From NCBI GenBank assembly GCA_902618205.1, contig CACMZL010000005.1, positions 59,184 through 123,183 on the forward strand: a stretch of DNA of 64,000 nucleotides, given 5' to 3'. The notes below the pieces were generated by a model. It saw only the letters and a list, made by a program, of their open reading frames with translations, made no database searches and was not told the DNA's origin. A program made the translations under genes and the position numbers. The DNA comes from an uncultured Pelagibacteraceae bacterium. GTDB taxonomy: Bacteria; Pseudomonadota; Alphaproteobacteria; Pelagibacterales; Pelagibacteraceae. Shown piece after piece: positions 54,203 through 56,154 of this stretch (its first letter is position 1; each line of letters starts with the position of its first letter).

Positions 54203-54877
54203 TTAAATAATTGATAAGAATCTTTTTGAAAAATTTTCTAATTTTTGTGAGTATTTTCTAGAGTCTGAATTAAATTTATTATACGCAATTACAGCAGGAA
54301 TTGCTGCCAATAATCCAAGTGCAGTTGCAAATAAGGCTTCAGCAATACCTGGTGCAACTATTGCAAGGCTAGTGTTTCTTGAAATTGCAATCGATTGAAA
54401 TGAATTCATAATTCCCCAAACAGTTCCAAACAATCCTATAAATGGAGCTGTCGATCCAACAGTTGCCAAAAAACTATTATACTTTTCAACTACTACCATT
54501 TGTTTTTCAATATTTACTTCTAAAACACTAGATAGTCTCTCAGATAAATTTGATTTTGATCTAGTTTTCATAACTGTTTGCATAGAACTTTTAAATAATT
54601 TTGCCATAGGATCCTCAATATTTGAAGGCAGACTGTTATAAAATGTTTCAGCAGACTTTGATTTCCAGAATTTCTCTTCAAATTCTTCTGCGCTTTTATT
54701 AATTTTTCTAAACATTCTTATTTTTTCAAATATTATTGCCCATGAATAAATAGAACTCACAATTAATATTATGATTACTGACTTGACAATAATGTCCGCA
54801 CGTAAAAATAAACTAATTAAAGAAAAATCTGTGTTACTTGCTAAACCTAAACTTTGCGTTGCAATATCTGCTTCCAT
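54203..54877 (-). CDS. tolQ: TolQ
   Basis: STAPFIGLFGTVWGIM, APGIAEALFATALGL. Confidence 0.96.
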   Translation of the reverse strand: MEADIATQSLGLASNTDFSLISLFLRADIIVKSVIIILIVSSIYSWAIIFEKIRMFRKINKSAEEFEEKFWKSKSAETFYNSLPSNIEDPMAKLFKSSMQTVMKTRSKSNLSERLSSVLEVNIEKQMVVVEKYNSFLATVGSTAPFIGLFGTVWGIMNSFQSIAISRNTSLAIVAPGIAEALFATALGLLAAIPAVIAYNKFNSDSRKYSQKLENFSKRFLSII

Positions 54878-54933
54878 TCAATCGTTTCCCATTAAAATAT
54901 GTCATTAATTTGTCTTCAAAAAACTCTAATGGT

Positions 54934-55431
54934 CTAGTTATCGTTGTTTTCCCTTGTGTTTTCAAAATACTGAGCAATTAAAATAGCATCTGCTTTATTA
55001 TTATCTTTTTTTCTTGATAACTTATTAGAAATTCTAGGAAACATATCTATTACTTTAGTTCGACTGGCATCTTTTTCAGAATTAATCAAATTAAAATGTT
55101 TTTTCCATTTTGCTGGTCTAACATAAAAAATTGGAAGCTCCATTGCAGAACATATGCCTTTAATTACTCCAAATGATTGTCCAAAATTAAACATGCTTGT
55201 TACACCTTGTCCTGGCATAGCAGAAACTTGTTCGACTATTACACTCATTTTTTCATTCTTAAATTTATTTTTTATTAGCATTATTTCATTATAAATTTGC
55301 CTACCATTAACTTGTTTTTTATTTTTTTTTCCTTCAGCCATTGTAGGCATATCGATTACATCAATAACATTCCCACTAGAAAAAAAACAGATAGCACCTG
55401 CTATTCCTGGATCAATTCCAACAATAATCAT
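54934..55431 (-). CDS. RuvC-fold Holliday-junction-resolvase-like nuclease, non-canonical (MOC1/phage-like)
   Basis: GIDPG (D7), VEQV (E67), SMFNFGQSFG, PAKWKK, KKDNNKADAILIA (D143/D148); lies directly after yebC where ruvC is normally found. Confidence 0.75.
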   Translation of the reverse strand: MIIVGIDPGIAGAICFFSSGNVIDVIDMPTMAEGKKNKKQVNGRQIYNEIMLIKNKFKNEKMSVIVEQVSAMPGQGVTSMFNFGQSFGVIKGICSAMELPIFYVRPAKWKKHFNLINSEKDASRTKVIDMFPRISNKLSRKKDNNKADAILIAQYFENTRENNDN

Positions 55432-56154
55432 TTAATCTTCAAAGTTAACATTTGTATAAACATTTTGTACATCATCCTCATCGTCAAGAGTTTCTAAAAA
55501 TTTTACCATATTTTGATTTTCTTCACCTTTAAGAGATACCTTATTTATGGGTAGCCACTCGATTTCGGTAGAGAGAAAATTTGCAATAACTTTTTCAAAT
55601 TTTTTTTTTACTTCATATATTTCATCGATATCCGTATGCACTTCATGAAATTCATCTCGAGATATACAATCATTTGCACCCGACTCGATTGCCAATTCAA
55701 AAATTTTATCTTGTTCAATTTCATTTTTATCTATTTTAATTACACCCAATCTTTGAAAATTATGTGATGCAGAACCCTGGGTTCCTAAAGAACCGTTATT
55801 TTTCGAAAATATTGTTCTTATATTAGAAGCAGTTCTATTTTTATTATCAGTCAATGCTTCAACTATTACAGCAGATTTGCTAGGTCCAAAACCTTCATAC
55901 CTAATATTTTCAAAATTTGATTGATCATTGTTAGAAGACTTTTCAATTGCTCTCTCAATATTTTCTTTTGGCATGTTAGCTGATCTGGCTGCTTGTATTG
56001 CTGATCTTAATCTCGAATTCATATCGGGATTCTTATCTCCTAGTTTTGCAGCTACAGTGATTTCTCTAGAGAGTTTAGAAAAAATTTTTGATCTCTGTTT
56101 GTCAGCTTTGCCTTTTTTATGTTTAATACCCGCCCAATGTGAGTGTCCAGCCAT
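55432..56154 (-). CDS. yebC: YebC/PmpR family protein
   Basis: MAGHSHWAGIKHKKG, YEGFGP, TDNKNRT, DDEDDVQNVYTN. Confidence 0.96.
   Translation of the reverse strand: MAGHSHWAGIKHKKGKADKQRSKIFSKLSREITVAAKLGDKNPDMNSRLRSAIQAARSANMPKENIERAIEKSSNNDQSNFENIRYEGFGPSKSAVIVEALTDNKNRTASNIRTIFSKNNGSLGTQGSASHNFQRLGVIKIDKNEIEQDKIFELAIESGANDCISRDEFHEVHTDIDEIYEVKKKFEKVIANFLSTEIEWLPINKVSLKGEENQNMVKFLETLDDEDDVQNVYTNVNFED

Follow-up and report, generated by a model that had tools for sequence, protein, structure and literature searches.

In Pelagibacteraceae, the chromosomal slot that most other alphaproteobacterial families fill with ruvC, ruvA and ruvB holds a single gene, which very probably descends from a phage-type Holliday junction resolvase. 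The gene was studied in a 64,000-nucleotide stretch of DNA (the window) from an uncultured Pelagibacteraceae bacterium of the order Pelagibacterales (SAR11; assembly GCA_902618205.1, contig CACMZL010000005.1). Here, a coding sequence on the minus strand at 54934..55431 specifies a 165-amino-acid protein that we call HJR, a predicted phage/MOC1-type Holliday junction resolvase of the RuvC fold, listed in public databases as 'crossover junction endodeoxyribonuclease (RuvC)'. We consider it highly probable that HJR is a domesticated resolvase of the phage family PHROG 1770, which replaced ruvC-ruvA-ruvB (and with them ybgC at this site) in an ancestor of the Pelagibacteraceae and has been a single-copy core gene ever since. 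Judging from sequence, HJR most likely works without RuvAB, and homology predicts that it cleaves junctions. A previous interpretation of the window, made from its letters alone (the sequence-only reading), had proposed such an in situ displacement of ruvC by a phage-type resolvase, which is supported by the retained flanking genes, the match to PHROG 1770 and tree topology tests.

Curated models of canonical RuvC score HJR below their cut-offs, with 20.8 bits for Pfam PF02075 (gathering score 22.2), 30.1 bits for the NCBIfam RuvC equivalog NF000711 (cut-off 163) and 19.8 bits for the equivalog TIGR00228 (cut-off 100.65). In contrast, the PHROG 1770 profile ('Holliday junction resolvase') matches HJR at E 1.2e-36, aligning residues 1-159 with positions 4-150 of 158. 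A phmmer search of the PDB sequences placed the plant resolvase NtMOC1 at the top (E 1.5e-16), with MOC1 matches spanning 1.5e-16 to 3e-9, among them Zea mays MOC1 (ZmMOC1, 8kfr; E 4e-10), while RuvC (7w8d) followed at E 0.025. The AlphaFold2 monomer model, computed from an alignment of 48 SAR11 and viral sequences, has a mean predicted local distance difference test score (pLDDT) of 93.9 and a predicted template modelling (TM) score of 0.90. Foldseek comparison of this model with the PDB returned MOC1 chains as the first 12 matches (TM-score 0.82-0.86, root-mean-square deviation 2.2-2.7 Å), followed by RuvC from Deinococcus, Thermus, E. coli and Pseudomonas and from lactococcal phage bIL67 (TM-score 0.56-0.71, probability 1.0 for RuvC). 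The bIL67 enzyme in this list is PDB entry 4ktw.

Profile-profile alignment by hhalign of the HJR family with 14 canonical alphaproteobacterial RuvCs gave a probability of 96% (E 4e-9) at 23% identity, showing that the two belong to one superfamily but to distinct families. The HJR family is large, with 13,117 clusters (50% identity) at E <= 1e-3, and includes 108 isolate-phage homologues at 30-40% identity as well as IMG/VR loci, at least 573 of them, with identities reaching 47%; a scan of genome contigs with a narrow HJR alignment matched Pelagibacteraceae only. By sequence and by structural model, HJR is a protein with a predicted RuvC/RNase-H fold that is not a canonical RuvC. This agrees with the sequence-only reading, which had found the signatures of the protein more like those of MOC1 and phage RuvC-like resolvases than those of bacterial RuvC: hidden Markov models (HMMs) of RuvC stay below cut-off, and the fold is best matched by MOC1.

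The putative active site is preserved throughout the family. All of 51 diverse homologues share D7, G9, G12, P29, E67, F81, G84, G88, W109, K110 and K120, and D143 and D/E148 are nearly invariant among them; in 81 SAR11 sequences the same positions and also D143 are invariant, and position 148 is D save for one D148E. When aligned to NtMOC1, D7, E67, D143 and D148 correspond to D116, E175, D253 (H in ZmMOC1) and E258, the experimentally proven catalytic tetrad of that enzyme (PMC7078210). Similarly, K120 falls, within a KD motif, on the position of ZmMOC1 K229 and Pseudomonas aeruginosa RuvC (PaRuvC) K119, mutation of which cripples or abolishes cleavage (PMC11183143). The corresponding codons lie on the minus strand at 55411..55413 (D7, predicted first catalytic Asp, in GIDPG, also aligned with E. 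coli RuvC D7), 55231..55233 (E67, predicted second acidic residue, also aligned with RuvC E66), 55072..55074 (K120) and 54988..55005 (D143 to D148, predicted third and fourth acidic residues, in KKDNNKAD).

While hhalign also aligns D7, E67, K120 and D148 with canonical RuvC residues, the C-terminal acidic pair of HJR has the D-x4-D spacing of MOC1, as opposed to D-x2-D in canonical RuvC. This spacing, together with the motifs AMPGQGVTSMF, WKK and KKDxGRADA, is common to HJR and the phage/MOC1 family, and the motifs quoted in the sequence-only reading are all present (GIDPG with D7, E67 in VEQVSAMPGQGVTSMFNFGQSFG, PAKWKK, and KKDNNKADAILIA with D143 and D148).

A maximum-likelihood tree (92 rows, LG+C20+F+G4) separates the canonical RuvCs, 15 alphaproteobacterial sequences and that of E. 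coli, from everything else at 100/100 support, the branch between them being very long. The SAR11 proteins in the tree, ten from three genera, fall into a single clade (100/99) within a radiation of sequences from viral contigs, isolate phages and metagenomes, and they do not group inside alphaproteobacterial RuvC: forcing the SAR11 proteins together with alphaproteobacterial RuvC (E. coli RuvC excluded) costs 110.6 log-likelihood units and is rejected by the approximately unbiased (AU) test (p-AU 8.7e-5). No pelagiphage donor was identified, and the viral sequences closest to HJR share no more than 47% identity with it. In the same tree, the plant sequences MOC1_Nt and MOC1_At are nested in the phage-type clade beside metagenomic and viral sequences, far from canonical RuvC, with modest support for their neighbours (87/80). 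This nesting suggests that plant MOC1 may have been gained from the phage-borne family rather than from a cyanobacterial RuvC.

The proposed replacement is reflected in the gene order. In the window, yebC (55432..56154, minus strand; NF001030, 313 bits) ends in a TAA that abuts the HJR ATG with zero gap (...GAT TAA ATG ATT...), and a 56-bp spacer (54878..54933, minus strand) separates HJR from tolQ (54203..54877, minus strand; TIGR02796, 258 bits), the first gene of tolQRAB; where this spacer lies, relatives have ruvA-ruvB-ybgC. The layout is that described by the sequence-only reading, whose interval was right at its 55431 end, while its start at 54878 took in the spacer and the gene itself ends at 54934. 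A sequence scan found no promoter-like or terminator-like sites above chance between yebC, HJR and tolQ, which is compatible with one transcript; yebC and HJR are probably transcribed together.

In other alphaproteobacterial families, the order yebC-ruvC-ruvA-ruvB-(about 500 bp, ybgC)-tolQ-tolR-(tolA)-tolB was seen in 12 of 16 loci, confirming the conserved arrangement against which the locus had been judged, and several of these loci carry MTHFS-ymdB directly upstream of yebC, as does the window. In SAR11 the arrangement is MTHFS-ymdB-yebC, the 165-amino-acid gene and tolQRAB in 80/80 Pelagibacteraceae loci and in two further genera, with a spacer of 55-72 bp between HJR and tolQ in nearly all 80; such uniformity is neither chance nor an assembly artefact. 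The sequence-only reading was correct that ruvA, ruvB and ybgC are missing from the locus. Its ybgC component does not extend to the genome, since a ybgC-like thioesterase gene on another contig (C3:158184-158576), 32-36% identical to the post-ruvB ybgC of other alphaproteobacteria, indicates that ybgC was moved or a paralogue kept, not lost.

HJR behaves as a core gene. All but one of the 91 family genomes carry it in single copy, and the exception (G124) also lacks yebC; a real loss of HJR in that genome was considered and dropped, an assembly gap being likelier. The ratio of nonsynonymous to synonymous substitution rates (dN/dS) is 0.10 among close relatives, indicating purifying selection. 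HJR has a G+C content of 28.9%, and 17.5% at third codon positions, equal to its neighbours and to the genome (29.4%), and the open reading frame (ORF) list of the window holds no phage genes or defence-system genes beside it. The HJR sequence is identical in AG-894-A03 and AH-287-G19. Elsewhere in the class, the HJR family occurs in 3/298 genomes, all of which keep RuvB, and these three copies sit in mobile contexts beside an XRE-type regulator or a serine recombinase. Additionally, two irregular reading frames were encountered among the loci compared. In the single-amplified genome AG-349-P05 (L045:6001-6429, plus strand) the HJR ORF is cut to 143 amino acids, being 96% identical until then, probably through a frameshift or assembly error. 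In a 1.9-Mb alphaproteobacterium (genome G227; L207:5864-6388, minus strand) a canonical ruvC that otherwise aligns well has two in-frame stops under translation table 11, which may reflect a pseudogene, sequencing error or recoding.

The genome from which the window derives (a single-cell or metagenome assembly of 1.38 Mb in 28 contigs, 97% complete) yielded no RuvA, RuvB or PF02075 RuvC in HMM searches, the RuvB model giving only weak cross-matches to AAA+ proteins (FtsH, Lon, ClpX and similar). Also, tblastn and phmmer searches of this genome with E. coli RuvA, RuvB, RuvC and RadA found none of the four: the RuvA and RuvB queries retrieved only unrelated AAA+ proteins, E. coli RadA matched only RecA and the Lon protease domain, and a RadA motif search matched DusA alone, so that RadA/Sms was not found either. 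RecG is present at full length (679 amino acids, 695 bits, E 9e-209), RecA and PriA were recognised by motif, and RecG is the sole recognised branch-migration helicase left in the genome. No other resolvase family was found in it among those searched (canonical RuvC, PDDEXK_15). None of the 151 genomes sampled from the order, dozens of which are single contigs at 99-100% completeness, has RuvB, and with the same model it was detected in 285 of the 298 good-quality genomes from the rest of the class, down to genomes of 0.8-1.2 Mb. The absence of ruvA and ruvB that the sequence-only reading had noted at the locus is therefore genome-wide and not the result of relocation. Eight more alphaproteobacterial genomes (G175, G436, G326, G392, G241, G406, G353 and G167) lack RuvB, PHROG 1770 (E <= 1e-15) and PF24608, a phage endonuclease family treated below; several of them are closed or nearly closed at 1.4-1.6 Mb.

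A second family of the order provides an independent view of the slot. RuvB, canonical RuvC and a PHROG 1770 protein were not found in this family, in which the same flanking genes enclose an ORF of 125-127 amino acids between yebC and tolQ (L111:7169-7549, minus strand; L112:8301-8681, plus; L113:8166-8543, plus; L114:8353-8736, plus). This ORF matches PF24608 ('phage putative PDDEXK endonuclease') at 31-34 bits (gathering score 27) and PHROG 244 at E 2e-20, gives weak matches to Hjc, carries the motif E14...D50-x9-E60-A-K62, and is labelled 'putative PDDEXK endonuclease' by NCBI and 'Holliday junction resolvase' by JGI. Its AlphaFold2 model from a single sequence was unusable (pLDDT 46.6), and its profile matches in the PDB, all to designed repeat proteins, were set aside as spurious. 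On the basis of PF24608, PHROG 244 and the weak Hjc matches, the ORF is classified as a predicted phage-type PD-(D/E)XK nuclease.

Similarly, in another RuvB-less alphaproteobacterial lineage, a 168-amino-acid PF24608 protein (77 bits) directly follows yebC (L227:8437-8943, minus strand; L228:1745-2251, plus strand). This nuclease is only about 23% identical to that of the second family. Two ORFs come after it, one tilS-like (SGGPDS motif) and one AAA+ ORF resembling FtsH, with no tolQRAB at the locus; the genomes measure 1.4 Mb and are labelled by NCBI as metagenome-assembled genomes of a Hyphomicrobiales or Rhodobiaceae bacterium. That one slot holds two unrelated folds of the resolvase type in lineages lacking RuvAB is strong circumstantial evidence that selection keeps the function of the slot, which would be junction resolution coupled to yebC.

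These observations are best explained by the domestication of a phage-type resolvase. The conserved core context outside any phage in 80/80 loci marks HJR as a domesticated derivative, and with RuvA, RuvB and RadA absent, HJR would have to act without the RuvAB motor. By analogy with MOC1 and RuvC, an HJR homodimer would bind the open four-way junction and introduce two symmetric nicks through a metal-ion site formed by D7, E67, D143 and D148, while K120 would stabilise the transition state; the nicked duplexes would then be ligated. From the gene content, any movement of junctions would fall to RecG, RecA or spontaneous migration.

Several observations weigh against this interpretation or restrict it. 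Among enzymes that have been characterised, the plant MOC1s come closest to HJR, at an identity of only 25-30%. The metal ligand D117 of ZmMOC1, in its DPD motif, is replaced by G9 in HJR (GIDPG), a glycine that is invariant across the phage-type family, and the cytosine-reading D183 of NtMOC1 is replaced by Q75, within an invariant GQG; details of the mechanism and the sequence preference of HJR may therefore differ from those of MOC1. With Q75 at the cytosine-reading site, the C-specific cleavage of MOC1 would not be expected in HJR, a change that would suit a genome with 29% G+C. HJR thus belongs to the phage-type family of which MOC1 is also part, without being a MOC1 orthologue, and its cleavage preference is likely to be different. 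RuvX/YqgF, sometimes proposed as a resolvase, is encoded in the genome (PF03652, 140 bits), and the search for RuvA covered this genome alone. Finally, a tree in which the SAR11 clade is sister to all canonical RuvC was kept by the AU test (p-AU 0.49, unrooted). This reflects the ambiguous attachment point of the very long RuvC stem, not kinship.

HJR could instead be a RuvC-fold nuclease with another main job, such as broad-specificity debranching of stalled forks, flaps or replication intermediates, nucleoid segregation or anti-phage activity, with RecG, RuvX or topoisomerases handling recombination junctions. Many phage resolvases are broad-specificity debranching enzymes, and MOC1 is a nucleoid-segregation factor in chloroplasts. 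RuvC-like enzymes of phages often show less junction specificity than RuvC, as is reportedly the case for that of lactococcal phage bIL67; HJR does not keep the residue with which MOC1 reads the base, and RecG and RuvX are at hand. However, HJR occupies the ruvC slot and is coupled to yebC as ruvC is, which points to functional replacement, and an unrelated resolvase-type nuclease takes the same slot in relatives. No second resolvase among the families searched is available in the genome, and there are no defence-system neighbours, so we consider such a different primary role unlikely.

A vertically inherited alphaproteobacterial ruvC that evolved fast after the loss of RuvAB, and is phage-like in appearance only, would account for the exact position of HJR beside yebC, for its weak recognition by RuvC models and for the unrooted tree placing SAR11 beside the RuvC stem. 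Yet the constrained grouping with alphaproteobacterial RuvC is rejected, HJR is 40-47% identical to viral proteins as against about 23% to RuvC, the derived motifs and the D-x4-D spacing are held in common with the phage/MOC1 family, and E. coli RuvC as a tblastn query has no match to HJR even at E 10. On this sequence evidence, vertical descent is largely refuted and appears very improbable.

That HJR is a prophage remnant or selfish-element gene without host function, here by chance, is suggested by the overwhelmingly phage-borne nature of its family and the mobile contexts of the three other alphaproteobacterial copies, but is barely credible for a gene without flanking phage genes that keeps the same synteny in every locus and across genera, a low dN/dS, a conserved active site and the base composition of its host, and whose SAR11 members form a single clade. 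Equally slight is the chance that RuvAB is present but was missed through assembly gaps or extreme divergence, and still serves the resolvase as its motor: the genome is in 28 contigs and RuvA was sought in it alone, but the order-wide lack of RuvB includes the single-contig genomes, the same model succeeds even in 0.8-Mb genomes of other alphaproteobacteria, and the E. coli RuvA and RuvB queries recovered nothing but unrelated AAA+ proteins.

With HJR taken as a domesticated phage-type resolvase, MOC1 (PDB 6kvn and 6kvo for NtMOC1; 6is8, 6jrf and 8kfr for ZmMOC1) is its closest solved relative by both sequence and fold. The two have the aligned catalytic set in common, and MOC1 is likewise a stand-alone resolvase, working in a compartment without RuvAB and nested in the same phage-type clade. 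They differ in that HJR is bacterial and chromosomal, has neither transit peptide nor N-terminal extension, and lacks both the extra metal-ligand Asp (DPG for DPD) and the cytosine-reading Asp. The PHROG 1770 resolvases of Salmonella phage epsilon15, Planktothrix phage PaV-LD (ORF119) and phiCbK-like Caulobacter phages resemble HJR in motifs and length at 30-47% identity, and we found no biochemical characterisation of these phage proteins in the literature. Unlike them, HJR is not carried by a phage, but is a single-copy core gene of host-like composition fixed between yebC and tolQ throughout the family.

Canonical RuvC (PF02075; E. coli 1hjr, T. thermophilus 4ld0) has in common with HJR the RNase-H-like fold, the first two acidic residues, the lysine and the position after yebC, and differs in the curated-model scores, the deep separation in the tree, the C-terminal acidic spacing and the RuvAB partner, with which RuvC acts in vivo. 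A functional parallel is offered by E. coli RusA, a resolvase from a cryptic prophage which, in work from the Lloyd and Sharples laboratories, reportedly suppresses ruvA, ruvB and ruvC mutants once expressed, and needs RecG to do so. In both cases a phage-derived stand-alone resolvase and RecG stand in for RuvABC, the SAR11 inventory being a phage-type resolvase and RecG without RuvABC. RusA has an unrelated fold, and its state is a laboratory suppressor in E. coli, whereas in SAR11 the arrangement is the wild type, fixed across an entire order; by analogy, the SAR11 arrangement could be regarded as the natural equivalent of the RusA and RecG state.

The protein family itself, the idea that phage resolvases replace RuvC and the database name RuvC are already known. 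Our literature search, which left subscription journals largely uncovered so that a prior mention is possible, found no mention of the loss of RuvAB in SAR11 or of the phage/MOC1 nature of its 'ruvC'. The membership of this gene in the phage/MOC1 family, the order-wide absence of RuvAB and the different nuclease folds in the slot of sister lineages appear to be undescribed.

If our interpretation is correct, a free-living bacterium would rely on one domesticated phage enzyme to resolve its junctions, without RuvAB, a state that, to our knowledge, is otherwise found mainly in laboratory suppressors (RusA) and organelles (MOC1). Two unrelated nuclease folds in one slot of sister families would then amount to a natural experiment of unusual clarity on non-orthologous displacement, and studies of resolvase specificity would gain in HJR a bacterial relative of MOC1 that is easy to express and differs in the residues that read the base. 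The interpretation would also suggest that plant MOC1 came from the phage-type family rather than from cyanobacterial RuvC.

Few organisms on Earth are more abundant than SAR11 bacteria, which are noted for very high recombination. In published inventories, RecBCD, RecF and MutSL are listed as lacking from SAR11 (PMC12374537). Speculatively, the loss of RuvAB-directed resolution may add to these missing systems in shaping promiscuous SAR11 recombination, since recombination without RuvAB-directed branch migration and without the sequence preference of RuvC could help explain it. In a wider proposal, which we hold tentatively and rate at somewhat below even, Pelagibacterales would recombine without RuvAB (and, in the genome studied here, without RadA), their ruvCAB having been overwritten in place beside yebC by phage resolvases of two unrelated folds (RuvC/MOC1 type in Pelagibacteraceae, Hjc-like PD-(D/E)XK type in the sister family) and that of a third, RuvB-less lineage likewise, so that streamlined ocean bacteria would have converged on a minimal 'RecG only' toolkit that may help explain the promiscuous recombination of SAR11.

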